64,000 bases of DNA, from assembly GCA_937930175.1 (NCBI GenBank), contig CALGLP010000018.1, positions 14,193-78,192 of the forward strand. The letters are read 5' to 3'. A model generated the notes under the pieces. The model made no database searches. It saw only the letters and a program-made list of their open reading frames with translations, and was not told the DNA's origin. This document shows, one piece after another, positions 6,205-53,988 of the stretch. A program made the position numbers and the translations under genes. This DNA is from an uncultured bacterium (GTDB lineage Bacteria > Omnitrophota > Gorgyraeia > Zapsychrales > Aceulaceae). Within the stretch, counting starts at the first letter, position 1, and the number at the start of each line of letters is the position of its first letter.

Positions 6205-6216
6205 GATTTTGGTTAG

Positions 6217-6256
6217 GTGAAAAACCCGCCTTTAAAAGGCGGGTTTTTCACTGAAC
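6217..6256 (+). terminator. Rho-independent terminator after fba
   Basis: gtgaaaaacccgcc / tttaaaa / ggcgggtttttcac: 14-bp GC-containing stem followed by a T-run. Confidence 0.8.
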
Positions 6257-6318
6257 TGAGTTAATTTTTTTTAATTCTAAAAGTTCGATAAAATGGTTTA
6301 TAAAAGTTTCGTGGGGTC

Positions 6319-8001
6319 ATGATGAAAGAAAATTCTTTTTCGAAACACGTTAAGAAGTTTACTTTTCTTTCTCTTCTCTTGTTTTGTGCCCTTTCTTTAA
6401 GCATTCCTAAGACATCTCAAGCCGAAGCATCGTCATCAGATGTTATCTGTGGCGCTTATCTGACAGGTATCGGTTGCAGTAATTGTGCGGTCATCGATCC
6501 CATGTTGTTTCATGAAATTGTGACGAAGTACCCGCAAGCTATTATTTTGGAATACGAAATCTATCATGCAAGCAAAGAAAACGAACAAATCAAAGCAGAT
6601 TATTTTAAAAACTTTTTTCCGGGTCAACCGATTGGTGTTCCTGCGTTTATTTTAAACAATACAACCAAGGCTGTAGGGCGTATTAAGGTAGCAGACCTGT
6701 TGTCGGGTTTTGATAAGATTGTATCAAACGCCTGTCCGATGTCAGATGGGACGGTTAAAGATCTTCAAACGCTTGATTTAACCACGCTTTCGGGAAAGAT
6801 TAATATTTGGACCAAGAACCGTGTTTTATCAACGGATAGAGCCGGCGGAGATAATCGCATCTTAAAAGAACTCTTGCTAGAGACTAATATATGGAAAGTT
6901 TTAAAGGGCATTCCGTATGAAAAAATAGAGCCAGTACCGGTTGAGATTTCGCAAAATGTCATCACTTTTCAATATGCTGTACGTATTGGCAGTTGGACGT
7001 TGCAATGGAATGAATATGCGCCAGGAAGCCCGCAAAATTCATCGAGAAAAGTCGGTGGGGCGATTGTCCAAATATTTTTAGCCCTTGTCGGGATTCTTGT
7101 TCTCGTCGCACTTTTAAAGATTGAAAAAACGTCTAAGGGTTACGGACTTAGGATGCGTAATTTTGGAAAAAAGCAGAAAGATTATGCCTTTGTCGCACTC
7201 GCGGTTGTTGGGCTCGGTGCGTTCTTTATTTTTGCCAAGAGTTTGAATCCTGCGGCCCTTGAAAAAGCAGGTTATTATTTACCTTTGCCCATCTTTACTT
7301 TGATTATTGGCTTCATTGATGGATTTAATCCATGCAACATGTTTGTTCTCACTTGCTTGATGGCGCTTTTGGTTTCAAGTTCTGATTCCAAAATGCGGCT
7401 TTATGTTGTTGGGATCACATTTGTGGGAACAGTGTTTGTGCTTTATTTTCTATTTATGGCAGCCTGGCTGAATGTGTTTCAGTATGTCAATTTTATTACA
7501 CCACTGCGTATTGGCATTGGTCTTTTGTCGCTCATAGCAGGCTTGATTAATTGCAAAGAGCTTTTATTTTTCAAAAAGGGTATTAGCCTGACAATCCCCA
7601 ATGAACAAAAAGGCCCATTGATGAAAAAGATTTATGCCATGAAAGCTGCTATTCAGAAAGGCTCTTTTCCAGTCTTGATTTCCTCCGCGTTTGCCTTGGC
7701 GATCCTGTCGTCCCTTGTTGAAATTCCATGTACCGCGGGATTTCCGATCATTTACACAGGAATTCTTTCGGGCAAAGTTTTTGAAAATTCTTTTGTCTAT
7801 TATGTGTATTTAGCATTTTACAATATTCTTTATGTTCTGCCGCTTTTCGTCATTGTGACCATGTTTATCGTCACTTTTAAAGGCGCGCCGATTTCTCAAC
7901 GACAAATGGAAATCCTAAAATTTATCGGTGGGATCATCATGATCCTTTTAGGTATTGTTCTTTTAGTTAATCCAAGCTTGGTTGGCGTAAATATGGGCTA
8001 A
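6319..8001 (+). CDS. thiol:disulfide interchange membrane protein: N-terminal periplasmic thioredoxin-like CxxC domain fused to a CcdA/DsbD-type transmembrane domain
   Basis: Signal peptide. GIGCSNCAV CxxC in a thioredoxin-like beta-alpha-beta context. C-terminal half is polytopic with FNPCNMFVL and EIPCTAGFP, resembling the two conserved TM cysteines of CcdA/DsbD (xPC motifs). Confidence 0.55.
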   Translation: MMKENSFSKHVKKFTFLSLLLFCALSLSIPKTSQAEASSSDVICGAYLTGIGCSNCAVIDPMLFHEIVTKYPQAIILEYEIYHASKENEQIKADYFKNFFPGQPIGVPAFILNNTTKAVGRIKVADLLSGFDKIVSNACPMSDGTVKDLQTLDLTTLSGKINIWTKNRVLSTDRAGGDNRILKELLLETNIWKVLKGIPYEKIEPVPVEISQNVITFQYAVRIGSWTLQWNEYAPGSPQNSSRKVGGAIVQIFLALVGILVLVALLKIEKTSKGYGLRMRNFGKKQKDYAFVALAVVGLGAFFIFAKSLNPAALEKAGYYLPLPIFTLIIGFIDGFNPCNMFVLTCLMALLVSSSDSKMRLYVVGITFVGTVFVLYFLFMAAWLNVFQYVNFITPLRIGIGLLSLIAGLINCKELLFFKKGISLTIPNEQKGPLMKKIYAMKAAIQKGSFPVLISSAFALAILSSLVEIPCTAGFPIIYTGILSGKVFENSFVYYVYLAFYNILYVLPLFVIVTMFIVTFKGAPISQRQMEILKFIGGIIMILLGIVLLVNPSLVGVNMG

Positions 8002-8102: not shown

Positions 8103-8232
8103 GATAGGCACCAAGTTTTCTGGAATTTGATAAAGATGTAATTTGGGCCGCCTGAGCTTTTCTGGCAAAATATTTAGAGAGCGCAGATAGGCACCAAGTT
8201 TTTTGGAATTTGATAAAGATGTAATTTGGGCC
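8103..8232 (+). repeat. 47-nt direct repeat (2 copies, 1 mismatch, period 83 nt) comprising the tRNA-Lys upstream region plus the first 5 nt (GGGCC) of the tRNA
   Basis: Copy 1 at 8103-8149, copy 2 at 8186-8232: gataggcaccaagtttt(c/t)tggaatttgataaagatgtaatttgggcc. Copy 2 runs into the mature tRNA 5' end. Confidence 0.85.
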
Positions 8233-8300
8233 ATTAGCTCACATGGTAGAGCAAGTGACTCTTAATCACTGGGTAGCAGGTTCGATTCCTGCATGGCCCA
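8228..8300 (+). tRNA. tRNA-Lys (anticodon CUU)
   Basis: Manual fold gives a 73-nt cloverleaf: acceptor GGGCCAT/ATGGCCC, D-arm GCTC-ACATGGTA-GAGC, anticodon stem AGTGA/TCACT with loop CTCTTAA (anticodon CTT), T-arm GCAGG-TTCGATT-CCTGC, discriminator A. CCA is not encoded. Confidence 0.85.
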
Positions 8301-13670: not shown

Positions 13671-13705
13671 TATAAATAAAAATTTGTAACGAGGGAGTGT
13701 CTACG

Positions 13706-14740
13706 ATGAAAAGAGTTCAAACAAAGATTATCTGCACCTTGGGGCCAGCGAGCTCAACACGAGGAATTCTCCTGAAGATGATTCGCTCTGGGATGGATGT
13801 TGCGCGTCTAAATTTTTCTCATGGAACGCATCAGAGCCATGCTGAAAGCATTCGTCTTATCCGCCAGATCAACCAAGCTTATCGACGCAATGTTAAGCTG
13901 CTTCAAGATCTTGAAGGATTTCGTATTCGCATCGGCCATCTTAATCAATGGCCTAATAGTGTTGTTGTTTTGAAAAAACATCAAATCGTCACTCTTTCTA
14001 ATAATCCTAAATATTTTAAGTCGGGTGTTATTCCTTTTGATTACGAGGGAGCGCTTAGGGTGATCACGCCAGGACGTCATATCTATATTGATGATGGCAA
14101 TATCGCTCTTGTCGTGAAGCATACGTTTAAGAATTATTTGCAAGCGTTTGTTGAGGTGGCAGGCACAATCAAGGAGCATAAGGGGATCAATATTCCTGAT
14201 GTTAAGTTACGTTTTACCGGAATGACTTCAAAAGATCAGCAAGATCTTCTTTTTGGTATCGCGAACCATGTTGATTTTATTGCGCAATCATTTGTTCGCA
14301 CTCAACAAGACCTTTTGGCGGTTCGTAAGGTCCTTTTAAAATATCATTCTAAGGCAAAGCTTATTGCTAAGATTGAAAATCAAGAGGGTGTTGATAACAT
14401 CGATTCTATTTTATTAGCTTGTGACGGGGTGATGATCGCGCGAGGGGATCTTGGGGTTTGCTTACCGATTTATGAAATTCCTTTTTTGCAGAAAATGCTT
14501 ATAAAAAAATGTAAAGCGCGAGGCAAATTTGTGATCACCGCAACGCAGATGCTTGAAAGCATGACCGAGCGCTTGAGGCCAACACGTGCCGAAGTGACTG
14601 ATGTTGCCAATGCGATCATTGATGGCACCGATTATACGATGCTTTCGGCCGAGAGCGCGGCCGGACGCTATCCTGTCGAGTCTGTTGAGATGATGAATGA
14701 TATTTGCAAGTACACCGAACAATATTTAGCGAAGACGTAA
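13706..14740 (+). CDS. pyk: pyruvate kinase, catalytic core only (no C-terminal regulatory domain)
   Basis: [45 protein letters not shown] motifs all present. ORF ends about where the A domain ends (about 345 aa) and the next gene starts 20 nt later. RBS GAGGGAG, 8 nt spacing. Confidence 0.8.
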
Positions 14741-26830: not shown

Positions 26831-26858
26831 TTGATTCTTACCCAAAACCCATTAAAAT
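26831..26858 (+). promoter_or_regulatory. sigma70-like promoter upstream of the phosphorelay cluster
   Basis: TTGATT - 16 nt - TAAAAT, 27 nt before ATG 26885 (RBS AAAGGAG). Confidence 0.45.
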
Positions 26859-26884: not shown

Positions 26885-27946
26885 ATGGTGCTCCAGGATT
26901 TAATCTTTAAAGCAAAAATTTTGATTATTGATGATCAGAGGCTTCACATTGGCCTTTTGGAGGATATTTTGCGTAAATCTGGGTATCAAAACATTCAAAG
27001 CATCACCAATCCACAGGATGCAATTGAACTTTACAAAGATTATCAACCCGACTTGATCTTACTTGATCTGGAAATGCCTAAAATTGACGGCTTTACCATC
27101 ATGGCACAATTAAAAGAGTTGACGGGTGAGGAGCGCTTGCCGCTTTTGGCTCTATCGCCCAGTCGAAGCCAAGAATTAAAGGCCTTAGAATCTGGGGCAA
27201 CGGATTTTCTAACAAAACCTTATGAAGGTATTGAGGTTTTGGTACGTATTCACAACATTATTGAAACGCGCCTATTAAATAACGCCGTTCGTAATCAGAA
27301 TAAAATCCTTGAAGAAAAAGTGAAAGAACGCACCCAGGAGTTAAGTCAGACGCGCTTGGACATTATTCAACGTTTGGCGCATGCTGCGGAATACCGCGAT
27401 GAGGATACCGGTGTTCACATTGTGCGCATGAGCAAGCTTTGCGCAAAGCTTGGCGCAGCGCTAGGGCTTGATGCCCAGCAGTATGATCTCATTTTAAACG
27501 CAAGCCCTTTACATGATATTGGCAAGCTTGGTGTTCCTGATAGCATTCTTTTAAAGCCAGCCAAATTGACTCCCGAAGAGTGGGAGATCATGAAAAAGCA
27601 CACCACAATTGGCGCAAAACTTCTTTCCGGCAGCGATTCCGATTTTATGAAAATGGCAGAGACGATCGCGCTCACACATCATGAAAAATGGGATGGGACA
27701 GGGTATCCTCAAGGGCTTAAAGGCGAGGCTATTCCCTTAGTGGGTCGCATTGTGGCTATTTGTGATGTTTTTGATGCGCTGATGTCCCGACGTCCGTATA
27801 AAAAAGCCTGGACTTTAGATGAAACTCTCGCGGAAATCAAGCGGACCAGCGGAACACACTTTGATCCTCAAGTCGCGGATGTGTTTTCGCGTGTTGTGCT
27901 TTCCGAGCGTGATGAAATCGCACAGCAATACATGATTGACGAATAG
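26885..27946 (+). CDS. response regulator with HD-GYP output domain (putative c-di-GMP phosphodiesterase, RpfG-like)
   Basis: REC domain (ILIIDDQ..DLILLDLEMPKIDG) plus HD..H..HHEKWDGTGYP (HD-GYP signature). Confidence 0.8.
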   Translation: MVLQDLIFKAKILIIDDQRLHIGLLEDILRKSGYQNIQSITNPQDAIELYKDYQPDLILLDLEMPKIDGFTIMAQLKELTGEERLPLLALSPSRSQELKALESGATDFLTKPYEGIEVLVRIHNIIETRLLNNAVRNQNKILEEKVKERTQELSQTRLDIIQRLAHAAEYRDEDTGVHIVRMSKLCAKLGAALGLDAQQYDLILNASPLHDIGKLGVPDSILLKPAKLTPEEWEIMKKHTTIGAKLLSGSDSDFMKMAETIALTHHEKWDGTGYPQGLKGEAIPLVGRIVAICDVFDALMSRRPYKKAWTLDETLAEIKRTSGTHFDPQVADVFSRVVLSERDEIAQQYMIDE

Positions 27947-27959
27947 AAAAGTTAAAGGC

Positions 27960-30155
27960 ATGAGCCAAGAACACTTTAACGACATATTTTCCCCTAAGAT
28001 TCCTGTCCTTAATCTGGAAGAGCAAGCAGACATGCTCACAGAGTTTACAACCGAAGTCCTAGATCTTTTAATCGAAGCTAAAAATGCTATCCTTGCCCTT
28101 GAAACTGTTTCTAATGATAAAGAAGCTTTAAATAGGGCATTTAAAGTTTTTTATACCATCAAAGGGCTGGCCGCATTTTTAAATTTAGCCGATATTCAGT
28201 TTCTTGCCAGGCAAACCGAAGAGCTTTTTGATGCTTTGCGCAAAGAAACGCTTGCTGTTGATGATGAGGTGATTGAGGTGGCACTTGCGTCCGTAGATCA
28301 ATTACGTATTTTATTGGATTTACTCAATGAACAAATTTCGCATCAAGGTCATTTGACAAGCCCCTATTGCGATGTCAGCACAACAGCCGAACGTATTTTG
28401 ACGCTAAAAGAGCGCGCCATTCCTGGATCCATTAAGAAAGTTATTATCGATAAGCGCCTTGGAAAAATGCCAACGGTGAGCTTGCCGGTTTCAGAACAGG
28501 ATAACCGGGCTAAGATTTTAAAACGTCAGCAAGAGTTAATCAAAGAACGCGAACTTGCTATCCGGTTAGGCCAGCAAGCCCAGCGGCTGGCGGCGGAAAA
28601 AAGTGATATGCTCGCCAGCATGTCCCATGAAATGCGCACGCTGATCAATGCGATCTTAGGTTTTTCTGAACTCCTCATTAAAAGTCCTTTAGAAGAAAAG
28701 CAAAAGATCTTTTTAAGCTCCATTAGTTCCAGCGGCGAGCTTTTACTCGATATTATCAATAATATTCTTGATTTGGCTAAAATTGAGCGTGGAAAGTTAA
28801 AACTTGAAGAATTAAGTTTTAGCCTTCCGGATGTCGTGGAAGATGTTTTTCGTATTATTCGCGCTCGCCTTGAAGGTAAGGCGGTCTCGTTATTTTTTAC
28901 CATTGACGCCAACATCCCTTATGGAATTAAAGGCGATCCAACACGGTTTCGACAAATTCTTCTGAATTTAATTGGCAATGCTGTGAAATTTACAGAAAAA
29001 GGCGAAGTAGGTCTCATTGTTGATCAACTTCCTAGCGAAGAAGCTGTCGCCAATAACGGCAATATTCGTTTGCGCTTTACCGTTTCTGATACCGGTACAG
29101 GCATTCCTGAGTCACGGCTCCATTACATCTTCGAACCCTTTATGCAAGGCGATAAGACGATTGCGCGTGAATATGGTGGAACAGGTCTAGGGCTCGCTAT
29201 TTCAAAAAGCTATGTTGAGCTGATGGGTGGGAAAATATGGGTTGAGTCGCACGTGGGAACGGGAAGCCAGTTTATTTTTGAAGTACCTTTTCCTTATGAT
29301 GAAGCGTTAACTACTAAGGTCGCGACCACGCGCTCCCAGAAGTTAAGCTTTGTCAAGCATAAGTCAGTCATTCTTATTGATAAAGATAGCCGTCAAGAAC
29401 TTCTGAAATATTGCCAAGCCCAAGAAATGAATGTCCAGCTTTTTGATCAATCCGCGGGGGAAATCGCGGAAATATTGCTCAATAGCCGTCCGTTAAATAT
29501 GGCGGCGCCGGACCTTATCTGTATTGACCTTCTTAGCTACAAAGATGAAGCGTATCTTTTGGCAAGTAAATTGCAACAAGCCAAAGCGTTTGAACATACA
29601 AAAATTGTGGCCTTGACATCGGATATCAAGATTGGGTTCTCGAATGAAGCTTATAAGGCGTGCTTTGACGATTACCTTCTGAGACCAATTATCCAGTATG
29701 AATTCTTTTCATTACTTAAAAAAACATTTGGTTATGTCGACGAAGAGGAACAGCGAAAGACGCTTGATATTGATTCCAATTGCGCAGGGATTAAGGTTTT
29801 GATTGTTGATGACAGCATCACTAATATTGAATTGATTAAAGCGTATTTTGAATCGATTGCCTGTGAAGGAGATTTTGCCCTCAACGGCCAAGAAGCCATT
29901 GAAATGATTAAGAAAAAACGTTATGATATATGCTTCATGGATTTGCAAATGCCAGTCATGAATGGTTTTGCAGCTACACAGATTATTCGTCAAGAGATTA
30001 GTCAAGAGCTACCCATCGTCGCCTTAACAGCAGCGGATGCTACTGAAGATAAAGAAAAGTGTAGGGAAATTGGTTTTAATGACTTTTTATCTAAGCCGTT
30101 CAACATGGATGATTTTAAGAAAAAGATACTGACCTATGGCCGAAAATACAACTAA
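27960..30155 (+). CDS. cytoplasmic hybrid sensor histidine kinase: N-terminal HPt-like domain with Tyr in place of the phospho-His, then HisKA, HATPase_c, pseudo-receiver and REC
   Basis: HPt-like FKVFYTIKGLAAF (compare CheA P1 F.ILHTLKGSAGMF); H-box SHEMRTLINAILGFSEL; N/G1/G2 boxes (LIGNAVKFT, DTGTGI, GGTGLGL); C-terminal REC LIVDDS..DICFMDLQMPVMNG. No TM helices. Confidence 0.75.
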   Translation: MSQEHFNDIFSPKIPVLNLEEQADMLTEFTTEVLDLLIEAKNAILALETVSNDKEALNRAFKVFYTIKGLAAFLNLADIQFLARQTEELFDALRKETLAVDDEVIEVALASVDQLRILLDLLNEQISHQGHLTSPYCDVSTTAERILTLKERAIPGSIKKVIIDKRLGKMPTVSLPVSEQDNRAKILKRQQELIKERELAIRLGQQAQRLAAEKSDMLASMSHEMRTLINAILGFSELLIKSPLEEKQKIFLSSISSSGELLLDIINNILDLAKIERGKLKLEELSFSLPDVVEDVFRIIRARLEGKAVSLFFTIDANIPYGIKGDPTRFRQILLNLIGNAVKFTEKGEVGLIVDQLPSEEAVANNGNIRLRFTVSDTGTGIPESRLHYIFEPFMQGDKTIAREYGGTGLGLAISKSYVELMGGKIWVESHVGTGSQFIFEVPFPYDEALTTKVATTRSQKLSFVKHKSVILIDKDSRQELLKYCQAQEMNVQLFDQSAGEIAEILLNSRPLNMAAPDLICIDLLSYKDEAYLLASKLQQAKAFEHTKIVALTSDIKIGFSNEAYKACFDDYLLRPIIQYEFFSLLKKTFGYVDEEEQRKTLDIDSNCAGIKVLIVDDSITNIELIKAYFESIACEGDFALNGQEAIEMIKKKRYDICFMDLQMPVMNGFAATQIIRQEISQELPIVALTAADATEDKEKCREIGFNDFLSKPFNMDDFKKKILTYGRKYN

Positions 30156-30531
30156 GAAAATTCTTGTCGTTGATGATTCAACTCTTGAGCGTGAACTTTT
30201 GATTGAAATTCTCAAAGGCTCGGGGATTAAAAATGATTTTCTTCAGGCCCGCAGCGGAGAACAGGCGATTGAGATCTTGGGACGTTATTACAAAGAGATT
30301 TGTGTTATCTTGCTTGACTGGCAGATGCCTGAAATGTCAGGGATTGAATTTATGGAAGGGGTTGTCAAGGTTCCTGCGGTTGCCAAGATTCCCATTACCA
30401 TGGTTACCGCGTCAGGATCTGAAGACAATAAACGCCAAGCGAAACAGGTTAATCCCAATTTAGCAGGATATGTTGTAAAGCCCTACGAACCTGAGCTTTT
30501 AGTGGCCACTATTAAACCGTTCTTAAGATGA
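30136..30531 (+). CDS. single-domain response regulator (CheY-like)
   Basis: KILVVDDS..ILLDWQMPEMSG..K REC motifs; 131 aa. Confidence 0.8.
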   Translation: MAENTTKKILVVDDSTLERELLIEILKGSGIKNDFLQARSGEQAIEILGRYYKEICVILLDWQMPEMSGIEFMEGVVKVPAVAKIPITMVTASGSEDNKRQAKQVNPNLAGYVVKPYEPELLVATIKPFLR

Positions 30532-31128
30532 TTGCGGTGGTTAAAGATGTTCTTTGGTGGTGCCGTTAATAAAGATTTAGAAAAATTTGCCCAGATTCTT
30601 GCCAAGAGCATTGCAAAGATGTTTTTGGAGCGAAACGCTGTTCATTTTTCACAGGATCCTTCTTGGCAAAAGAAATTGATCATTGAATATGCAGGTTTGA
30701 TGCGTGCTGATGGCATGGAGAAATACAACGAACCGACATTTATTTCATATATCAATTATTTTCTAAATGCCAAGGACATGGAAAGAAATAAAGCGATCGG
30801 TGGGATTGTTGTCTATATTGAGCAAAGTTATGTTGCTGCTCTTTTGAAGCTTTTACGTTATCCTTTAGCCGATGATGAAGATCTGGATGCCCTCGCAGAT
30901 TGCTGTGGAACTCTGTGCAACATTATTGCCGGAGCATTTAAGACGGAAATTTCAAATGCGGGGTACATTGAGCTAGAGATGTCTCATTTTACCAGTTATC
31001 GCAATCGCGCGGTTGTTGGCGTTCCGTTTCATTTTGATGAGCGAGAAAAAATGGAATTGTCTTTTTTTATTCAAAATCAAAAACGTCTTATCGTGGATAT
31101 GACGATGGGCGTTTTGCCTAAGCGATAA
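30532..31128 (+). CDS. hypothetical protein with CheX/CheC-like phosphatase-fold C-terminal half
   Basis: TLCNIIAGAFK resembles the CheX E.GNM.AG motif; N-terminal 100 aa unassigned. TTG at 30532 or ATG at 30547. Confidence 0.35.
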   Translation: MRWLKMFFGGAVNKDLEKFAQILAKSIAKMFLERNAVHFSQDPSWQKKLIIEYAGLMRADGMEKYNEPTFISYINYFLNAKDMERNKAIGGIVVYIEQSYVAALLKLLRYPLADDEDLDALADCCGTLCNIIAGAFKTEISNAGYIELEMSHFTSYRNRAVVGVPFHFDEREKMELSFFIQNQKRLIVDMTMGVLPKR

Positions 31129-31140
31129 GAGAGGTGCTTC

Positions 31141-31497
31141 TTGGATTCGAATACAAATCAAAATGTATTTCAGTACGATGTGGCGACGGTGAGTCTTGAG
31201 CTTCATGTGCGGCCGGAGATTTTAAACAAGTTATTAAAAAGCTTTTCAAACACGCTCGCGCAGAAGATTGCACAACTTGAGGAAGCTACCCTTAAGAATG
31301 ATGTGCTTCAGATTCGCGCGATTATGCATGAAGTCAAAGGGACATCTGGTAATCTTCGTCTAAAGCAAGTTTACGAGACTGCTGACAAAATGCATGTTGC
31401 GGTCAAGGCAGGGGATGCGCCGGAAATCATTGCCCCTCTATTTGAAGCCTTTAAAAAAGCGGCATTTTTGTTTATTGATTACTATAAAAATTTATAA
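31141..31497 (+). CDS. HPt (histidine phosphotransfer) domain protein
   Basis: IMHEVKGTSGNL (HxxKG with His intact) in a four-helix context; TTG start with GAGAGGTG SD. Confidence 0.65.
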   Translation: MDSNTNQNVFQYDVATVSLELHVRPEILNKLLKSFSNTLAQKIAQLEEATLKNDVLQIRAIMHEVKGTSGNLRLKQVYETADKMHVAVKAGDAPEIIAPLFEAFKKAAFLFIDYYKNL

Positions 31498-31511
31498 TAA
31501 GGAGACTCTCT

Positions 31512-31910
31512 ATGTGGAAAATTCTCGTTGTCGATGATAATTATGAAAATCGCGAACTCATTGTCGAGATTTTGCGCGAGCACGCGCGCTGCGATGTTGC
31601 CTCAAGCGGGAAAGAAGCCATTGACGCCTACAATACATCGCTGCATGATAAGCCGTATGATCTTATTTTATTAGATATTGAAATGCCCGAAATTAATGGC
31701 CTTGAGCTTTTGCGTAAAATTCGCCAAAGTGAAGAAGCCGCGGATATTCCTTTGGGGGAGGGTGTTGCCATTATCATGGTTACGGCACATAAAAAACCCT
31801 TCCTAGATGCTTTTTACCAAGGATGTAACGATTATTTTATTAAGCCCATTGATCCTGTTAAGCTCATCCAAAAAATTGAAAAGAAACTGGGCAAGTCGAC
31901 CAAGGAATAA
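31512..31910 (+). CDS. single-domain response regulator
   Basis: KILVVDDN..DLILLDIEMPEINGLELL..K REC motifs; 132 aa. Confidence 0.8.
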   Translation: MWKILVVDDNYENRELIVEILREHARCDVASSGKEAIDAYNTSLHDKPYDLILLDIEMPEINGLELLRKIRQSEEAADIPLGEGVAIIMVTAHKKPFLDAFYQGCNDYFIKPIDPVKLIQKIEKKLGKSTKE

Positions 31911-36353: not shown

Positions 36354-36776
36354 ATGGTGAATGAATTGCGCAGTTCTATCGAGCATCCTGGTATTGTTAT
36401 TGATACCTTGGGGGACATGGTAACAGTTCAGATTGAGCAGCTTTCAGCCTGTAGTCAGTGTCATGCCAAGCGTGCTTGCTTGTTATCTGATCGCAGTGAA
36501 AAGATTATTGAAATTGCGTGCAACCAGAAAACTTTCAAAAAGGGTGATCAAGTTACTGTTATCTTGGAAGAGCACAAGGGGGTTCTGGCTGTTTTTCTTG
36601 GTTATTTGTTACCTTTTAGTATAGTTTTCTTAACTCTTTTGATCACTCTTTCCATAACAAAAAAAGAGGTTTTTTCAGGGGTTTTAGCCCTTGGGTTTTT
36701 AATTCCGTATTATTTTATTATTTGGCTTCAACAAAATAATATTAAATCTAAGTTTTCATTTCGTATCAAACTATGA
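36354..36776 (+). CDS. rseC: RseC/MucC-family protein (Rnf-associated)
   Basis: GDMVTVQIEQLSACSQCHAKRAC N-terminal Cys motif plus 2 TM helices; immediately upstream of, and ATGA-coupled to, rnfB. Confidence 0.65.
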   Translation: MVNELRSSIEHPGIVIDTLGDMVTVQIEQLSACSQCHAKRACLLSDRSEKIIEIACNQKTFKKGDQVTVILEEHKGVLAVFLGYLLPFSIVFLTLLITLSITKKEVFSGVLALGFLIPYYFIIWLQQNNIKSKFSFRIKL

Positions 36777-37636
36777 TGTATACTGTTTTTACCTCTATTG
36801 TCTTGCTTTCCGTGACTGGAATCCTTTCTGGTGTGATTCTTTTTTTTGTTGCCAAGAAATTTCAAATTACCGAAGATCCCCGTATTGATGCTGTCGAATC
36901 GGTTTTACCTGGAGTTAATTGTGGTGGCTGCGGTTATCCTGGTTGTCGAAAGTTTGCCGAAGCCTGTGTTCGGGCTCAAGATTTTGATAAACTTTTCTGT
37001 CCTGTTGGTGGAAACAAAGGGATGGTGGAGGTATCAAAGATTTTAGGCCTCGAAGTAGCTGAAAAAGAAGTTAAAATTGCCGTTGTGCGCTGTAATGGAT
37101 CGCTTAAAAATCGCCCACGTATCAATGAATATGACGGCCAAGCTCGTTGCAAGATCGTTCATAATCTATATACCGGAGAAACGGGGTGCTCATTTGGTTG
37201 CTTGGGGCTTGGGGACTGCGTTCGTGTTTGTAAATTTGGTGCTATTGAGATTGATGAACAAACACAGCTTCCGATGATTGATGAAGAGAAATGCACAAGC
37301 TGTGGGGCTTGTGTCAAGGCTTGCCCGCGATTTTTAATCGAACTGCGCTATAGAGGTAAAAACCATCAACGCATTTTTGTCGCTTGTTCCAATCCTGAAA
37401 AAGGTAATATTGCAAGAAAAAATTGTTCTGCAGCATGTATTGGCTGCGGGAAATGTTTTAAGGTGTGTTCCTTCGATGCGATTAAAATAGGAGAAAACTT
37501 AGCTTATATCAATTATAAAAAGTGTACGCTTTGCCGCAAGTGTGTGAACGAATGCCCAACGGGGGCTATCCATGAGATTAACTTTAACCTTGTGAGATCA
37601 AGGCAAGCGCAAAACCCAAATGTGAGTATTGTATAA
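36773..37636 (+). CDS. rnfB: Rnf complex subunit B (polyferredoxin)
   Basis: N-terminal TM helix, CGGCGYPGC motif and multiple CxxCxxCxxxCP 4Fe-4S motifs. Confidence 0.85.
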   Translation: MMYTVFTSIVLLSVTGILSGVILFFVAKKFQITEDPRIDAVESVLPGVNCGGCGYPGCRKFAEACVRAQDFDKLFCPVGGNKGMVEVSKILGLEVAEKEVKIAVVRCNGSLKNRPRINEYDGQARCKIVHNLYTGETGCSFGCLGLGDCVRVCKFGAIEIDEQTQLPMIDEEKCTSCGACVKACPRFLIELRYRGKNHQRIFVACSNPEKGNIARKNCSAACIGCGKCFKVCSFDAIKIGENLAYINYKKCTLCRKCVNECPTGAIHEINFNLVRSRQAQNPNVSIV

Positions 37637-38985
37637 TGAAAATCTTTAACGGACTCGCAAGTTTCCCAAGAGGCGGGGTTCATCCTCAAGAATTAAAACT
37701 TTCAGCCAATCGGCCTATTGAATTCTTATCACCACCAAGAATTGTCACTATTCCTGTTTCCCAGCATTTTGGCGCACCAGCTAAGCCTATTGTTAAAGTT
37801 GGTGATAAAGTGAAAATTGGCCAGGTCATTGCAGAGGCCAATGGGTTTGTTTCAACACATATTCATGCTACGGTTTCCGGTACGGTGACAAAGATCGAAA
37901 TGTGCATGGATATGAGCGGGTACAAACGCCTTGCGATTATTTTAAATGCGGAAGGGGAGGAGTGGCTTGAAGGTATTGATTTATCAAGAACTCTTAAAGC
38001 AGAAATTATTTTAACCGGTCCACAAATCATTAAAAAAGTCCAGCAAGATGGTCTTGTCGGCTTAGGCGGGGCAACCTTTCCTTTGCATGTTAAGCTTTCG
38101 CCACCACAAGGTAAGCACGCAGATGTTCTTTTGATCAACGGTGTTGAATGTGAGCCGTATTTAACAGCAGATCATCGCTTGATGCTTGAAAAAGGTCCTG
38201 AAATTATCGTTGGCATCCAAATTCTCATGAAAGCCCTTAATGTAAGCAAGGCCATGATTGGTATCGAGGCAAACAAAACGGATGCCATTGATCATTTATC
38301 AAAACTTACTAAGGATACTCCTGGTATCAAAGTTGTTACGCTTAAAGTTAAATATCCACAAGGCGCGGAAAAACAACTTATTGAAGCTATCATTAAACGA
38401 CAGGTTCCTATCGGGGGATTACCCATTGATGTCGGATGCGTTGTTCAAAACATTGGGACAGCTTTTGCCGTATATGAATCGATTCAAAAGAATAAACCGC
38501 TTGTAGAGCGCGTTGTGACTGTTGCGGGAGAGAGTCTTAATCGATCATCCAATTTCCTTGTTCGCATTGGGACACCTGTTTCTTATTTGATTGAGGTTGC
38601 CGGAGGCCTTCCAGAAGATACAGGAAAGATTATTGGTGGTGGACCCATGATGGGTAAAGCCCTCAATACACCAGAAGTTCCTGTTGTCAAAGGAACATCA
38701 GGTATTCTTGTTCTCCCACGTATGTATGCCAAACGTGATCCTGTTTTGCCCTGTATTCGTTGTGCCAGGTGTGTTTCGCATTGTCCACTAGGTCTCGAGC
38801 CTTATCTATTGATGAATCTTGTTGAAAAAGGGATGTCCGAGGAAGCTGATCGAGAAGCAATTATGAATTGCTGTGAGTGTGGCAGCTGCGCTTATGTCTG
38901 TCCAGCAAAAAGACCGCTCTTGGATTCTATTCGCCTTGGAAAATCATTTATTGCCCAACAGCGTAAAGAGAAAGCAAAGACATGA
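37636..38985 (+). CDS. rnfC: Rnf complex subunit C
   Basis: GLVGLGGATFP NADH/FMN-binding block and C-terminal 2x[4Fe-4S] CxxCxxCxxxCP. Confidence 0.85.
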   Translation: MKIFNGLASFPRGGVHPQELKLSANRPIEFLSPPRIVTIPVSQHFGAPAKPIVKVGDKVKIGQVIAEANGFVSTHIHATVSGTVTKIEMCMDMSGYKRLAIILNAEGEEWLEGIDLSRTLKAEIILTGPQIIKKVQQDGLVGLGGATFPLHVKLSPPQGKHADVLLINGVECEPYLTADHRLMLEKGPEIIVGIQILMKALNVSKAMIGIEANKTDAIDHLSKLTKDTPGIKVVTLKVKYPQGAEKQLIEAIIKRQVPIGGLPIDVGCVVQNIGTAFAVYESIQKNKPLVERVVTVAGESLNRSSNFLVRIGTPVSYLIEVAGGLPEDTGKIIGGGPMMGKALNTPEVPVVKGTSGILVLPRMYAKRDPVLPCIRCARCVSHCPLGLEPYLLMNLVEKGMSEEADREAIMNCCECGSCAYVCPAKRPLLDSIRLGKSFIAQQRKEKAKT

Positions 38986-39983
38986 ATCATCAAAAATTAA
39001 TTGTTTCGCTCTCCCCACATGTTTATGCTCCTGCCAGCGTTCGTTGCATCATGATGGATGTCTTGATCGCGCTGACACCCGCTCTGCTTTGGTCAATTTA
39101 TGTCTTCGGCATTAATGCGTTACGTGTCACACTCTTGGGTGTGGCTTCATGCGTTGTTTTTGAATATCTTTTACAACGATATGTTTTAAAAATTCAGCCA
39201 ACAGTTGATGATGGCTCTGCCGCTGTTACGGGGCTTTTACTTGCGTTTAACTTACCAAGTAATATTCCAAGCTGGATGATAATTCTTGGATGCTTCTTTG
39301 CTATTGCCGTGGCAAAATTAACCTTTGGCGGCTTGGGGAACAATCCTTTTAATCCTGCGCTTGTAGGACGTGTTTTCCTTTTTGTGTCCTTTCCTGTTGC
39401 CATGACAAGTTGGCCTATTCCCTTAACAAATCGCTTTCAATTTATTGATGCGATGACCCAAGCGACTCCGCTTTCAATCGTAAAGGAAGGCCTGAAAAAC
39501 AGAATCCCTGTTGTTGATCTCATGGCAAAAATTCCAAATTATTTTGATTTGTTCATCGGTAATCGCGCAGGATGTATCGGCGAGATATCTGTTTTGCTTC
39601 TTTTCTTGGGTGGACTTTATTTATTGTATCGCAAAGTCATTAGCTGGCAGATCCCTGTTTCGATGATTGGTGCCATTTTTGCGTTTTCAGGTATCTTGTG
39701 GATGATTGATCCAAGCGCCTACATGACACCGTTATTCCAAATCTTGACCGGAGGTGTATTTTTGGGTGCTATTTTTATGGCGACAGATATGGTGACATCA
39801 CCAATGATGCCTTGGGGCATGATCATCTTTGGTGCCTTCATTGGAATTTTAACGGTGATTATTCGTGTCTTTGGGGCCTATCCCGAAGGCGTTTCGTTTG
39901 CTATTTTAATTATGAATGCCTTTGTGCCTCTGATCGATAAATTGACAAAACCAAGAAAATACGGCAAGGTTAAGAATGTCTAA
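38982..39983 (+). CDS. rnfD: Rnf complex subunit D
   Basis: Polytopic NqrB/RnfD-like protein with a conserved FMN-attachment region (GGVFLGAIFMATD); ATGA-coupled to rnfC. Confidence 0.85.
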   Translation: MNHQKLIVSLSPHVYAPASVRCIMMDVLIALTPALLWSIYVFGINALRVTLLGVASCVVFEYLLQRYVLKIQPTVDDGSAAVTGLLLAFNLPSNIPSWMIILGCFFAIAVAKLTFGGLGNNPFNPALVGRVFLFVSFPVAMTSWPIPLTNRFQFIDAMTQATPLSIVKEGLKNRIPVVDLMAKIPNYFDLFIGNRAGCIGEISVLLLFLGGLYLLYRKVISWQIPVSMIGAIFAFSGILWMIDPSAYMTPLFQILTGGVFLGAIFMATDMVTSPMMPWGMIIFGAFIGILTVIIRVFGAYPEGVSFAILIMNAFVPLIDKLTKPRKYGKVKNV

Positions 39984-40554
39984 AAAGCCATCGACTTTTT
40001 TCAACATGGTAGGGACGCTGTTTATTATTTCCTTTTTCTCGTCTGCGGCGCTAGGATTTGTTTATGAAATGACGAAAGGGCCTATTGCCAAAGCAACTCT
40101 TGAAAAAAAGATCAAGGCGATCCAAGAAGTTGTTCCTGCTTTTGACAATCATCCGCTTGATGAAGTTTATAGCGTCGATATTGACGAGGGAACACTCTTT
40201 TTTTATCCTGCCAAAAAAAATAACAAGCTTGTTGGTACAGCTGTTGAAACATTGACCACAAAGGGGTTTTCTGGAATCATCAAGCTCATGGTTGGCCTCT
40301 TGCCAGATGGAACGATTAACAATATTGTTGTTGTTGAGACGCACGAAACGCCAGGGTTAGGCGATAAGATCAAAAAGGAAAAATCTGATTTCTCAAAACA
40401 ATTTACGGGCAAGAATCCATCGTTATTTACACTTAAGGTAAAAAAAGATGGAGGGAGTGTTGATGCGATTACTGCGGCCACAATTAGTTCACGAGCTTTT
40501 TGCGATGCGGTGATAAAAGGTTATCAGGCATATAAAAAGGAAGTCCGAAAATGA
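39976..40554 (+). CDS. rnfG: Rnf complex subunit G (FMN-binding)
   Basis: N-terminal anchor and FMN_bind motif (SGATISSRA-type: AATISSRAF). Confidence 0.8.
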   Translation: MSKKPSTFFNMVGTLFIISFFSSAALGFVYEMTKGPIAKATLEKKIKAIQEVVPAFDNHPLDEVYSVDIDEGTLFFYPAKKNNKLVGTAVETLTTKGFSGIIKLMVGLLPDGTINNIVVVETHETPGLGDKIKKEKSDFSKQFTGKNPSLFTLKVKKDGGSVDAITAATISSRAFCDAVIKGYQAYKKEVRK

Positions 40555-41138
40555 ACCAGTGGCAGAATCTGATCAAAGGTTTGATTAAAGAGAATCCTGT
40601 TTTTGTTTTAATTTTAGGGACCTGTCCAACCCTTGCGGTCACGACATCGGTTGCCAATGCTCTTGGCATGGGGCTCTCAACAACTTTTGTGTTGGTGACT
40701 TCAAACCTTGCGATTTCCGCGCTTAAAGATTTTATTCCTGATAAAGTGCGCATTCCTTGTTTTATCGTCGTTATTGCCTCATTTGTTACTATTGTGGATT
40801 TGGTCATGGCTGGTTATTGCCAGGTGATTCATGCGCAGCTTGGTATCTTTATTCCGTTGATTGTTGTCAACTGCATTGTTTTGGGACGCGCCGAAGCCTT
40901 TGCGGCTAAAAATGGTTTATGGTCGTCCACAGTTGATGGTTTAGGCATGGGATTAGGTTTTACTTTCGCGCTTCTGGTCTTGAGCGCTATCCGTGAAGCT
41001 CTCGGTAGTGGATCATTTTTAGGACACAAGTTTATCCACAGTGACGGTATTTTATTTTTTATTTTAGCACCGGGCGCCTTTATTGTTTTTGGTTATGTAA
41101 TTGCGATCATCAATCGGATGAATCGCGGGACAAAATAA
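40551..41138 (+). CDS. rnfE: Rnf complex subunit E
   Basis: NqrD/RnfE-family 6-TM protein (NPVFVLILGTCPTLAVTTS). Confidence 0.85.
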   Translation: MNQWQNLIKGLIKENPVFVLILGTCPTLAVTTSVANALGMGLSTTFVLVTSNLAISALKDFIPDKVRIPCFIVVIASFVTIVDLVMAGYCQVIHAQLGIFIPLIVVNCIVLGRAEAFAAKNGLWSSTVDGLGMGLGFTFALLVLSAIREALGSGSFLGHKFIHSDGILFFILAPGAFIVFGYVIAIINRMNRGTK

Positions 41139-41162
41139 GCTTATAATTAAGCTTTAGGAGAT

Positions 41163-41744
41163 ATGGCGATGCCCTACGTTTTAATGATTATTTCAGCGGT
41201 TCTCGTCAACAACATTGTCTTGACGCAATTTTTAGGTATTTGTCCATTCCTGGGTGTCTCGAAGCGTTTCTCAACCGCTCTTGGTATGGGAGGGGGCGTT
41301 ATCTTTGTCATGACCCTTTCGACGATCATCACGTACCTTATTCAGACGTATCTCCTTGTTCCTTTTAAAATTGAGTTCATGCAGACAATTATTTACATTT
41401 TAGTTATTGCGGCCTTGGTTCAAATGGTGGAGATCATGCTTAAAAAGGTGAGCCCTGCGCTCTATCAGGCCCTCGGTGTTTATTTACCTCTGATTACAAC
41501 CAATTGCACGATTCTAGGCGTTGCAATCTTGGTTATTCGCAAAGAATTTAATTTAATGGAAAGTACGGTTTTTGCCATTTCCAATTCCATAGGGTTCACG
41601 TTCGCGCTTATTATCTTTTCAGGTATTCGCGAACGATTAGAACTTTTAGAAATTCCTGAGGCCATGAAAGGGATTCCATTAGCCCTCGTTCTTGCAGGGC
41701 TTTTATCTCTTGCGTTTATGGGCTTTTCAGGAATTGTTCATTAA
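41163..41744 (+). CDS. rnfA: Rnf complex subunit A
   Basis: NqrE/RnfA-family 6-TM protein (NNIVLTQFLGICPFLGVS). Confidence 0.85.
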   Translation: MAMPYVLMIISAVLVNNIVLTQFLGICPFLGVSKRFSTALGMGGGVIFVMTLSTIITYLIQTYLLVPFKIEFMQTIIYILVIAALVQMVEIMLKKVSPALYQALGVYLPLITTNCTILGVAILVIRKEFNLMESTVFAISNSIGFTFALIIFSGIRERLELLEIPEAMKGIPLALVLAGLLSLAFMGFSGIVH

Positions 41745-49161: not shown

Positions 49162-50562
49162 ATGGGAACCACACTCTACGAAAAAATTTGGAACAGTCAT
49201 TTAGTTCATGCCGAAAATGGCCAGGCATCGCTTATTTACGTTGACCGTCATCTCATGCACGAAGTGACATCCCCGCAAGCTTTCGAGGCGTTACGCCTGA
49301 AGGGGCGCCAGGTACGTTCAAGGGCAAGAACCTTTGCGGTTATGGACCACAACGTTCCAACGCGAGCAAAAGATTTAAGCTTTGCTGATGCCATTTCACG
49401 TACACAGATGGAAGCCTTGGCAAAAAATTGTCATGATTTTGGCGTCAAACTCTTTGATTTTATGCATCCTGATCAAGGCGTTATTCATATTATTGGTCCT
49501 GAGCTTGGCATTACCTTGCCAGGGATGGTCATTGTCTGCGGAGATTCACACACCGCGACCCATGGCGCCTTTGGATCTCTAGCTTTTGGGATCGGCACAT
49601 CAGAAGTTGAGCATGTGTTAGCGACGCAAACATTGCAGCAAAATAAATCAAAAACCATGCGCATCACTGTTGATGGTAAGATCTCTAAAGGTGTAACAGC
49701 AAAAGATATTATTTTATATATCATTGGGAAGATAGGGACTGATGGCGCAACAGGATATATTGTTGAATACGACGGTAGCGCGATTAGGCATTTATCCATG
49801 GAAGGACGCATGACCATTTGCAATATGAGTATCGAAGCAGGAGCCAGAGCGGGCATGATCGCGCCAGATGAAACAACCTTCAATTATCTCAAAGGAAAAG
49901 ATTTTGCTCCCACGGAGAGCCACTGGGATAGCGCGTTGGCCTCTTGGAAAACTTTAAAAAGTGATCTTGATGCTAAATTCGACAAAACGGTAAATATCGA
50001 TGCTACAGATATTCGCCCGCAAATTACCTGGGGCACTTCACCTGAGCAAGTTGTTGCGATTGACGCAAGTGTTCCCGATCCAAAAGAGTTTAGCGATCCG
50101 GTGAAGCAAGAAGCTGCCAAAAAGGCCTTAGCCTACACGGGCCTGGTTCCCGGAACGCCCATGACATCAATTAAAATTGATATTGTCTTTATTGGTTCTT
50201 GCACAAATGGAAGGATTGAAGATCTGCGTGCGGCGGCAAGCATTGTGAAAAATCAAAAAGTTGCTAAACATGTTCAGGCGCTAGCTGTTCCAGGATCTGG
50301 ACGTGTCAAACGCCAAGCTGAGCAAGAAGGACTCGACAAGATCTTTAAAGATGCTGGTTTTGAATGGCGCGAGCCTGGTTGTTCGATGTGTTTGGCCATG
50401 AATGAAGACAGGGCCGCTCCTGGCCAACGCTGCATCTCAACAAGTAATCGCAATTTTGAAGGCCGCCAGGGTAAGGATAGTCGAAGCCACCTAGCAAGCC
50501 CTGAAATGGCCGCGATCGCTGCTATCAAAGGCCATGTCGCTGATATACGGGAGTATCTCTAA
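49162..50562 (+). CDS. leuC: 3-isopropylmalate dehydratase large subunit
   Basis: [35 protein letters not shown] aconitase-family Fe-S ligands; about 466 aa from ATG 49162. Confidence 0.9.
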
Positions 50563-51174
50563 ATGGAACCTTTTTCTCTTCATACAGGTATTGTGGTGCC
50601 CATCGATCGCGCGAATATTGATACGGATGCCATAATTCCAAAACAATTTCTTAAAAAAGTGAATCGCACAGGCTTTGGGAAACATCTTTTTCATGATTGG
50701 CGCTACACCGATGAAGATGAGCATAATGAAAATCCTGACTTTATCTTAAACAAATCAACATATCAAAACGCTACAATCCTTTTGGCGCGTGACAATTTTG
50801 GGTGCGGTTCCAGTCGTGAACATGCCCCTTGGGCTCTAGCTGATTTCGGTTTTAAGGTAATTATCGCGCCAAGCTTTGCTGATATCTTTTATAATAATTG
50901 CTTACGTAATGGCTTGCTCCTCGTGAAATTAACGTCAGAAGAAGTAGACGATCTCTTTTTGTTGGCACTTCAAGCAAGTGGCGTTAAAATAACAGCTGAT
51001 TTGAACCGACAAAAGATTCTTACCCCCCGGGGTCAAGAATATTCTTTTCCTATCGATCCCTTTGCCAAAGAATGCCTGATTAAAGGGCTTGATGCGATTG
51101 GTTGGACGGAACAATTTATAGCAAAAATTGATTTATTTGAAAAGAACCTGAAACAAGAAAAGCCTTGGATTTAG
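50563..51174 (+). CDS. leuD: 3-isopropylmalate dehydratase small subunit
   Basis: G..VP.D..NIDTD.IIPKQFLK..R.GFG..LF..WR and GCGSSREHA blocks. Confidence 0.9.
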   Translation: MEPFSLHTGIVVPIDRANIDTDAIIPKQFLKKVNRTGFGKHLFHDWRYTDEDEHNENPDFILNKSTYQNATILLARDNFGCGSSREHAPWALADFGFKVIIAPSFADIFYNNCLRNGLLLVKLTSEEVDDLFLLALQASGVKITADLNRQKILTPRGQEYSFPIDPFAKECLIKGLDAIGWTEQFIAKIDLFEKNLKQEKPWI

Positions 51175-51183
51175 GAGGACGTT

Positions 51184-52251: not shown

Positions 52252-52266
52252 CATGCTTCTTATCCT

Positions 52267-53154: not shown

Positions 53155-53261
53155 GCTAAAAAAGAAGAGTTGCAGGGTTACGATTTTTTTGGCATCGATG
53201 AGAAGAGGTTTATCTTTTTCGTAGCTCTCGAGAAGTATCACTTCCAAAATCTCCAGACCTC

Positions 53262-53909: not shown

Positions 53910-53988
53910 GATAGTCTCTAAAAAGTATTTTTCAGCATTATATCGTGTTCAACGTAAAAGACAACTTAAAAACCCTTCTGATTTCACC

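Follow-up and report, generated by a model that had tools for sequence, protein, structure and literature searches.

The described modules closest to the one reported here include phosphotransfer domains that lack their phosphorylatable histidine (His). In DivL, a helical bundle has a tyrosine (Tyr) in the place of the phospho-His; the response regulator can still dock, kinase activity is abolished, and the protein is a sensor of phosphorylated DivK, DivK~P (PMC4211667). For ChpA, it has been suggested that those Xpt domains that are not phosphorylated are scaffolds (PMC12632253), and a survey of CheA architectures does not discuss non-His sites (PMC10542144). Here, we analyzed a window of 64,000 nucleotides (nt) of the Omnitrophota contig CALGLP010000018.1 (positions 14,193 to 78,192, assembly GCA_937930175.1). 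Positions 26885-31910 of this window hold six + strand open reading frames (ORFs) encoding, in this order, a response regulator with a receiver (REC) and an HD-GYP domain, a hybrid histidine kinase, a single-domain regulator (REC2), a protein of the CheX fold, a stand-alone histidine phosphotransfer (HPt) protein, and a further single-domain regulator (REC3). A prediction made earlier from the letters of the window (the original prediction) had described this cluster as a phosphorelay. We confirm that the N-terminus of the kinase is a four-helix HPt domain of the CheA P1 type in which Tyr replaces phospho-His, i.e., a pseudo-HPt.

Tyr in the phospho-His column of the kinase

The kinase and its N-terminal features have the following window coordinates:

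27960..30155, + strand: soluble hybrid histidine kinase, 731 amino acids (aa) from the ATG at 27960, with Hpt, HisKA, HATPase_c, and REC domains (Pfam)
28011..28340, + strand: pseudo-HPt of the CheA P1 type, residues 26-135 in ORF numbering (phmmer, Foldseek)
28152..28154, + strand: TAT codon of Tyr73 in ORF numbering, which is Tyr65 counted from the ATG at 27960 (read directly from the sequence)

The ORF is open from a TTG at 27936, the starts of the orthologs align to Met9, and a Shine-Dalgarno-like motif (AAAGG) precedes the ATG at 27960. This ATG, rather than the TTG, is probably the start codon.

The match of the kinase to the Pfam Hpt family (PF01627) is marginal, with 25.5 bits for a cutoff of 24.6. 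Among the orthologs, one representative (P0054) scores only 20.1 bits, and those bearing His score 27-46 bits. A phmmer search of the N-terminus against the PDB sequences retrieved five solved CheA P1 sequences with E-values between 7e-8 and 3e-4, namely those of T. maritima (2ld6, 7e-8; 1tqg, 9e-8), E. coli, Salmonella, and R. sphaeroides CheA3. Every one of these alignments sets the Tyr of FKVFYTIKG beneath the phospho-His of FRALHTLKG. In addition, orthologs from the same cluster carry His in the column of Tyr73, and the alignment of the kinases of the window's own clade (the Tyr clade, see below) revealed no conserved His in residues 9-215. We considered that the alignment of the Tyr might be a register error and rejected this idea, as orthologs have His in exactly this column between identical flanks (FK.F[HY]TIKGL). 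Hence, the substitution of His by Tyr in the HPt/P1 motif, as originally predicted, holds: the phosphorylatable His of the HxxKG motif is not present in the HPt domain of the window kinase, profile alignment keeps Tyr in its column, and it places no intact His elsewhere.

The predicted structure agrees with these alignments. An AlphaFold2 (AF2) model of the N-terminus is of moderate confidence, with a predicted local distance difference test score (pLDDT) of 62 overall and of 70-80 in the bundle region. It consists of four long helices (19-49, 54-73, 77-95, and 102-128), with Tyr65 on the second, and its best Foldseek matches in the PDB are CheA P1 structures (3kyi, and 1tqg with a target-normalised TM of 0.87 and a root mean square deviation of 1.6 A). 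The four-helix bundle implied by the original prediction is thus recovered.

We also compared the region at window 28011-28583 with the L015 and L016 kinases. The linker between the HPt domain and the dimerization and histidine phosphotransfer (DHp) domain is the least conserved part of the kinase, with a modelled pLDDT below 50, and in this linker the long kinases of the His type have an extra insertion of around 40 residues.

Distribution and constraint of the His/Tyr site

A genome scan revealed full-length orthologs in three metagenome-assembled genomes (MAGs), with the flanks MutY-SurE-[six genes]-citrate synthase-leucyl aminopeptidase-fumarase. Two of these MAGs are labelled Candidatus Omnitrophota. 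The third (L002) is labelled Planctomycetales, and its cluster is 66-88% identical to those of the Omnitrophota MAGs. The family of the CheX-like protein led to about 50 more loci, where the same cluster occupies the same position between surE and the citrate synthase gene. All but one of the named records of the cluster are from Candidatus Omnitrophota. The best explanation is that the system is specific to this lineage and was vertically inherited.

We recorded the residue at the HPt site in 27 distinct orthologs from the retrieved loci and the 150 best representatives, all from metagenomic contigs. The site is His in the kinases of about 760 aa (12/12 distinct sequences, FKTFHTIKGL) and Tyr in those of the window's clade (8/8 distinct sequences, 727-739 aa). 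A clade of short kinases (577-640 aa) has both, with His in L034, L042, L036, and L048 and Tyr in L031 and L032. The codons are only CAT/CAC or TAT/TAC, and no residue other than His or Tyr was found at the site among the 27 distinct orthologs. For comparison, the 150 nearest representatives drawn by an exhaustive HMMER search of 1.84 billion proteins have 298 HPt domains. The site is His in 295 of these, Gln in one, and Tyr in two, and the two with Tyr, P0054 and P0094 (the L032 kinase), both come from the cluster studied here.

Other searches returned few relatives. The N-terminal sequence alone had no matches in a word-indexed search for homologs, and a search with a 20-sequence profile found only nine proteins, mostly fragmentary, with His in the five that show the motif (5/5). 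We also considered that kinases of around 600 aa with an HPt-HisKA-HATPase-REC architecture (P0062, P0070, P0084, and P0089) might form a broader, independent family. We rejected this idea because P0070, the only one that could be placed, and the closest non-CheA relative for which this was possible, lies in the same surE/citrate synthase cluster. In the searches that we ran, an N-terminal HPt of the CheA P1 type fused to a HisKA kinase was found only in this Omnitrophota system.

To place the exchanges, we built a neighbour-joining tree from 1024 columns of REC-HD-GYP, REC2, the CheX-like protein, and the DHp, catalytic and ATP-binding (CA), and REC domains of the kinase, leaving out the HPt domain. 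The Tyr clade has a bootstrap support of 100%, as has the derived group formed by the Tyr clade and the short-kinase clade. Within the latter, L034, L031, and L032 group together (99%), and L034, which has His, groups with L032, which has Tyr (87%). The long kinases bearing His form the basal grade of the tree, and the topology indicates that His is ancestral in the orthologous kinases. Any reconstruction on this tree needs at least three His/Tyr changes. By our own rough estimate, the probability that three events would all lead to Tyr by chance is near 0.01, assuming a transition/transversion ratio of ~2 and Tyr as ~1/5 of the non-synonymous single-step neighbours of CAY.

The Tyr-bearing domain is not decaying and is constrained as strongly as the ATP-binding domain of the same protein. 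The mean pairwise identity of the HPt domain is 72% in the Tyr clade, vs 70% for the CA domain, and the values in the His clade are 59% and 62%. The Nei-Gojobori dN/dS of the HPt domain is 0.03-0.06 in the Tyr clade and 0.04-0.05 in the His clade, but these values are approximate, since dS is near or beyond saturation for most pairs. Around the site, F69, K70, F72, I75, G77, L78, F81, L82, L84, and D86 are identical in both clades. Beside Tyr73, the domain retains K76 (His+3), G77 (His+4), and E95. From the alignment with CheA P1, we take E95 to correspond to the Glu of helix C that forms a hydrogen bond with the His there.

One might have expected such a domain to be a functionless relic, made redundant by the stand-alone HPt and drifting to loss. 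The complement of HPt domains in these loci is indeed fluid, going from three functional domains down to one, and the L034/L031/L032 subclade has also lost the Lys and the Glu beside the site. Yet the N-terminal domain is present in 27/27 distinct full-length orthologs and is conserved like CA, with a dN/dS of about 0.05. Furthermore, Tyr is invariant in eight distinct sequences whose synonymous sites are saturated, and the site is never anything other than His or Tyr. We find a relic barely credible. A Tyr that is recurrent, exclusive, and invariant under strong purifying selection therefore points to a specific role of Tyr, not to mere loss. The original prediction of a non-phosphorylatable scaffold is plausible, but it understates a domain where His is ancestral, Tyr is the sole alternative, at least three switches occurred, and purifying selection is strong.

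The reading that we favor, with modest confidence, is a multistep relay in which the Tyr-HPt does not transfer phosphate and serves as a receiver-docking or sensing module, in the manner of DivL. The domain would descend from a working HPt of the CheA P1 type, yet would be unable to carry phosphate on to aspartate (Asp). It most likely still docks a receiver, either the kinase's own REC or phosphorylated REC2 or REC3, because selection is strong and the receiver-facing motif is intact. Such docking would be a means of regulating the kinase, in which no other domain serves as a sensor. Searches with Pfam and hydropathy revealed no PAS, GAF, HAMP, transmembrane, or other sensor domain in it, and another factor must therefore set its activity.

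Several points weigh against this reading, besides the saturation of dS. Docking alone should tolerate Phe, Asn, or Gln at the site, and none was seen; why the site accepts Tyr and nothing else is thus not fully accounted for. A site that is chemically active would likewise be compatible with the kept Lys+3 and helix-C Glu. The L034/L031/L032 subclade lacks this Lys and Glu whether it has His or Tyr, and the HPt site may behave differently in different clades. The model of the N-terminus was built from a single sequence, the tree is distance-based, and the partners of each component are ones that we infer from sequence.

The chemically active site deserves consideration in its own right. Tyr65 could be a true phospho-acceptor (Ypt), loaded by the CA domain of the kinase or by the acyl phosphate of a receiver, with stable phospho-Tyr as a memory or a sink. 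The domain is of the P1 type, and P1 is the natural substrate of CA domains. The Lys+3, Gly+4, and helix-C Glu that tune the reactivity of His in CheA are retained next to Tyr, the sole residue to replace His and one that never varies within a deep clade. However, transfer from Asp or CA to Tyr in an HPt domain has no known precedent, and a phosphotyrosine ester cannot pass on to Asp. The Tyr of DivL is not required as a phospho-site and DivL has no autokinase activity (PMC4211667), the Tyr autophosphorylation reported for RdmS, an archaeal kinase without an H box, has since been deemed unspecific (PMC11784639), and ChpA is phosphorylated on only 5/9 Xpt domains according to a 2025 review (PMC12632253). 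We consider phosphorylation of Tyr65 very unlikely. More speculative still is the broader idea that, with a P1 domain phosphorylated on Tyr65, evolution toggles the domain, inside a His-Asp relay, from a His that carries phosphate labilely to a Tyr that acts as a stable latch, and back.

Components of the putative phosphorelay

The other features of the cluster, in window coordinates, are:

26831..26858, + strand: promoter-like element TTGATT-16 nt-TAAAAT in the spacer between surE and REC-HD-GYP (conserved in orthologous spacers)
26885..27946, + strand: REC-HD-GYP response regulator, predicted cyclic di-GMP (c-di-GMP) phosphodiesterase (Pfam, PDB match, motifs)
28599..29291, + strand: kinase core, HisKA/DHp (His231 in SHEMRT) and HATPase_c (Pfam)
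29358..29735, + strand: pseudo-receiver of the kinase, about residues 475-600 (second Response_reg stretch in Pfam, weak REC alignments)
29796..30128, + strand: canonical C-terminal receiver of the kinase (Pfam Response_reg, residues 621-731)
30136..30531, + strand: REC2, single-domain response regulator, phospho-Asp61 (Pfam, 68.1 bits)
30547..31128, + strand: CheX/CheC-fold protein without the catalytic Glu (AF2 model, Foldseek, motif alignment)
31141..31497, + strand: stand-alone HPt protein, His63 in MHEVKG (Pfam Hpt, 30.2 bits)
31512..31910, + strand: REC3, single-domain response regulator, phospho-Asp55 (Pfam, 82.5 bits)

The start of REC2 overlaps the stop of the kinase by 20 nt, and the remaining intergenic gaps are of 12-15 nt, given the starts at ATG 27960 and at ATG 30547. 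The latter is the likely start of the CheX-like gene, and the protein in this form exists as the database record P0001. The composition and the tight spacing of the six genes, as originally predicted, are borne out by these coordinates and by the Pfam content. All six proteins (6/6) are soluble according to their Kyte-Doolittle hydropathy, with no credible membrane segment.

The core of the kinase is that of a hybrid histidine kinase. Pfam identifies HisKA (62.2 bits, residues 222-286), HATPase_c (100.8 bits, residues 333-452), and two Response_reg stretches. The H (SHEMRT), N (NLIGNAVKFT), G1 (DTGTGI), F (FEPF), and G2 (GGTGLGL) boxes are intact. The C-terminal receiver has DD625-626, phospho-Asp669, Thr698, and Lys720 (in VDDS, FMDLQMP, ALTA, and SKPF) and a mean identity of 83% within the Tyr clade. 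In other words, the protein has the HisKA His, the HATPase_c boxes, and a fused receiver with the DD, D, T, and K residues that define the class. Pfam revealed neither an H-kinase_dim (P3) nor a CheW-like (P5) domain, and the kinase is not of the CheA class. The best NCBIfam match is BarA, with 373 bits for an equivalog cutoff of 890, and the scores for the other equivalogs, including ArcB, TorS, and RcsC, likewise fall well short of the respective cutoffs. In the cluster, all four true receivers have intact DD/D/T(S)/K residues.

The region before the C-terminal receiver had been described as a pseudo-receiver without the acidic pocket. This is right in part: D-K replaces D-D and Arg replaces Lys, but the phospho-site Asp (in CIDLL) and the Thr are retained. 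Its alignments to REC domains are weak (E about 0.1), with Asp, Thr, and Arg in the expected columns. Across orthologs, both Asp and Thr are kept, L015 has lost the acidic pair, and the Lys position is Arg or Thr. The long kinases have this pseudo-receiver but those of the short-kinase clade do not, and it is therefore dispensable for the core relay.

In the mechanism that we propose, the cluster would be transcribed from the conserved promoter upstream of REC-HD-GYP. The hybrid kinase would autophosphorylate on the DHp His231, from which the phosphoryl group would pass to Asp669 in its own C-terminal receiver. His63 of the stand-alone HPt could then shuttle it to REC-HD-GYP (Asp61), REC2, and REC3, and the output of REC-HD-GYP would be the hydrolysis of c-di-GMP. 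A relay from kinase to receiver to HPt to receiver had been predicted for the cluster, and it is its natural reading. All domains and catalytic residues for it are present; we infer the order of transfer, as well as the docking or sensing role of the Tyr-HPt and the assignment of partners.

The REC-HD-GYP protein fits this output. It matches HD_5 (126 bits) and Response_reg (80.8 bits) in Pfam and has a phospho-Asp61 and intact HDIGK and HHEKWDGTGYP motifs. The closest PDB sequences are 4mcw, i.e., PmGH, an active c-di-GMP phosphodiesterase (E 3e-61), and PA4781 (4r8z, E 1e-33). At the sequence level, it thus has the HD and HHExxDGxGYP motifs together with similarity to a characterised enzyme, which agrees with the original prediction of a c-di-GMP-hydrolysing output. 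It is 51-88% identical across the orthologous loci and remains below the cutoff of the NosR family in NCBIfam (170 vs 400). In the REC-HD-GYP gene of L002 (about 444-1439), a stretch of X residues, with a gap of 24 residues where the HD motif should be, is an assembly or masking artefact, not a deletion. In L015, a basal locus, a gene with a PilZ domain, a family of c-di-GMP receptors, comes after fumarase, a few kb beyond the cluster on its downstream side (13672-14001); the corresponding place in the window showed no PilZ gene.

The single-domain regulators are well conserved: REC2 is 85-91% identical in the close orthologs L001-L003, and REC3 is 85-92% identical within the Tyr clade. REC2 is duplicated in one close relative: on the short contig L022, the CheX-like gene comes after two tandem REC2-like genes (204-1004), which share 90% and 62% identity with REC2.

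As the original prediction had noted, the stand-alone HPt retains its His. This His63, in MHEVKG, is kept in all Tyr-clade orthologs whose stand-alone HPt gene we read. Basal loci have two stand-alone HPt genes, one of the SHRLKG type and one of the LHEIKG type, plus the His-bearing N-terminal domain of the kinase. The two genes lie between the CheX-like gene and REC3 in L016 (8628-9368) and in L033, L038, L041, L044, L045, L052, L066, and L068. The derived clades keep only the HE[IVL][KR]G type, and L015 and L060 only the SHRLKG type. Hence, whereas basal loci have three potential His carriers for three terminal receivers, the window has one. As the functional HPt domains fall from three to one, the stand-alone HPt with His63 would therefore be the sole His-Asp-His-Asp route in the window.

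The presence of this working HPt opens another interpretation, in which the Tyr-HPt is an intramolecular decoy, like AHP6. It would compete with the stand-alone HPt for the receiver of the kinase or for the terminal receivers and damp or insulate the flow of phosphate, while sensing nothing. Pseudo-HPt proteins without His are well documented in plant two-component systems, where AHP6 carries Asn at the phospho-His site. In our loci, the receiver-facing motif is conserved and a functional stand-alone HPt is always present. However, a decoy gives no account of why only Tyr replaces His, and a competitor tethered to the kinase would keep its own pathway damped at all times. We regard it as possible but unlikely. 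It overlaps heavily with the docking or sensing module that we favor, and the sequence cannot separate the two.

The CheX-like protein had been predicted to be a possible phosphatase sink. In Pfam, the window protein reaches 18.6 bits for CheX, below the cutoff of 27. Yet an AF2 model from a 40-sequence alignment (pLDDT 89.7) matches CheX, CheC, FliY, and FliM in Foldseek (E 3e-8 to 1e-4), including the CheX structures 3h4y, 1xko, 3hm4, and 3hzh (E 3e-8 to 5e-6). The family comprises 53 proteins, whose named members are all from Omnitrophota, and has the motif D-x2-G-[T/A]-x2-N, which reads D118-x3-T122-x2-N125 (DSCGTLCN) in the window. In the profile alignment with the CheC-like protein of Shewanella (3iic, DLVGELTN) and the CheX of Borrelia (3hzh, TEVGN), Thr stands at the position of the catalytic Glu. 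The Glu was never found in a motif census of all the CheX-like copies: most have Thr and four have Ala.

One could still imagine a phosphatase sink for one receiver with a non-canonical active site. The fold is that of CheX/CheC, the motif Asp and the water-orienting Asn are invariant, and the CheX-like gene adjoins REC2 in all the loci read. But the change between Thr and Ala means that the Glu position is not catalytic, and Phe replaces the Pro of the extended motif D/S-x3-E-x2-N-x22-P. Glu and Asn are reportedly both required in CheX and CheC, and FliM, which shares this fold, is not a phosphatase. Such a sink seems quite unlikely to us, and the CheX-type sink of the original prediction is not supported in a family that has Thr or Ala throughout.

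The protein probably binds a receiver, REC2~P, and would act in the proposed relay as its partner or effector rather than as a canonical phosphatase. In L065, a REC and a CheX-like gene form a pair beside the gene of PEP carboxykinase (5593-6590), with no kinase, HPt, or HD-GYP gene; this CheX-like protein is 37% identical to that of the window and has the same D-x2-G-T-x2-N motif. This suggests a module, made up of REC2 and the CheX-like protein, that is independent of the other genes. The lone pair in L065 and the two REC2-like genes in L022 therefore designate REC2 as the candidate partner of the CheX-like protein.

The promoter proposed upstream of the cluster fared differently depending on the evidence. 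TTGATT-16-TAAAAT matches the consensus at 9 of 12 positions, and 14 sites of this kind were found for 11.7 +/- 3.1 in shuffled sequences. Taken from the window sequence alone, it is thus no better than chance. Yet both hexamers and their spacing are identical in six orthologous spacers between surE and REC-HD-GYP, in which the flanking sequence has diverged. The hexamers are conserved although dS is saturated in the coding regions. Variants occur in L018 (TTGATT with a TACAAT -10) and L025 (TTTAAT and TACAAT). This upstream element is a phylogenetic footprint consistent with a real promoter. At the other end, a terminator scan revealed nothing above the shuffled expectation and no convincing terminator after REC3. 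The citrate synthase gene starts 39 nt downstream of REC3 on the same strand, and the transcript may extend beyond REC3, which is a further point against the proposed mechanism.

Elsewhere in the window, a gene resembling RseC/MucC lies just after fumarase, followed by an Rnf-type complex (an RnfB-type Fe-S subunit, RnfC, and RnfD) and further ORFs downstream (36354-41744). L018 shares this arrangement of RseC/MucC-like and Rnf-type genes. The ORFs of at least 150 aa from 4369 to 53154 are nearly all on the + strand, with a positive GC skew. The cumulative skew peaks at about 50-52 kb and then declines, and gene orientation becomes mixed, with a turn near 50000-54000 that could be a replication-related switch. 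The only Rfam match at the gathering threshold in the window is a tRNA gene at 8228-8300, far from the cluster.

Comparison with described systems

Degenerate signalling domains are usually dismissed as dead, and the series of orthologs with His or Tyr amounts to natural pairs of wild type and mutant. If the Tyr-HPt senses a phosphorylated receiver, the reverse signalling of DivL would extend from DHp to HPt folds, and the control of a kinase without a sensor domain would be explained. The components are small and soluble, which makes phosphotransfer profiling in vitro straightforward. The cluster is also among the few conserved regulatory modules that can be recognised in Omnitrophota, to our knowledge a phylum without cultured representatives, and it ties a phosphorelay to the turnover of c-di-GMP.

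The kinase resembles DivL of Caulobacter crescentus (Tyr550) in that Tyr takes the place of phospho-His in a phosphotransfer module built as a helical bundle, while the motif around the site is conserved. However, the Tyr of DivL is in the dimeric DHp domain of a catalytically dead kinase, whereas that of the cluster kinase is in a monomeric, N-terminal HPt of the P1 type, and its own DHp His and ATP boxes are intact. The two modules are not homologous at the domain level, and the parallel is drawn here from their sequences.

The Xpt domains (Spt, Tpt) of Pseudomonas aeruginosa ChpA and the plant proteins of the AHP6 type are other HPt folds that lack phospho-His, have been retained, and are thought to be scaffolds or competitors. 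They carry Ser, Thr, or Asn instead of Tyr. ChpA is of the CheA class, with P3, P4, and P5 domains, and the plant pseudo-HPt are stand-alone proteins, unlike the domain described here. We know of no description, for either of them, of a site that toggles between His and a single alternative within one orthologous lineage.

CheA P1 provides the best matches in sequence and structure, and shares with the Tyr domain the N-terminal position, the motif with Lys at His+3 and Gly at His+4, and the helix-C Glu. In contrast to CheA, the cluster kinase has HisKA, HATPase_c, and its own His, has no P2, P3, or P5, and has Tyr for His in the P1-type domain. The HisKA-HATPase-REC core and the His-Asp-His-Asp logic with an HPt step are those of BarA, GacS, ArcB, and TorS. 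Unlike these, the kinase has no transmembrane, HAMP, or PAS input, its HPt fold is N-terminal and without His, and the working HPt is encoded by a separate gene.

The output protein has the same architecture and motifs as RpfG, PA4781, and PmGH, and we detected nothing unusual in it; one metal-ligand position of PmGH presumably reads Asp rather than Glu in the HD-GYP of the cluster (EDTGVH), judging from the alignment with 4mcw. The CheX-like protein has the fold of CheX, CheC, FliY, and the middle domain of FliM, with the Asp and Asn on the active-site helix. It differs from CheX, CheC, and FliY in lacking the motif Glu and Pro, in being ~40 residues longer, with an extra N-terminal helix, and in being encoded outside a chemotaxis or flagellar context.

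Hence, the hybrid kinase, the HPt protein, the CheY-like receivers, the REC-HD-GYP protein, and the CheC-fold protein are each of a kind already known. What is new is an HPt of the P1 type on a HisKA kinase, the repeated and exclusive exchange of His and Tyr under constraint, and a family of the CheX fold without the Glu.

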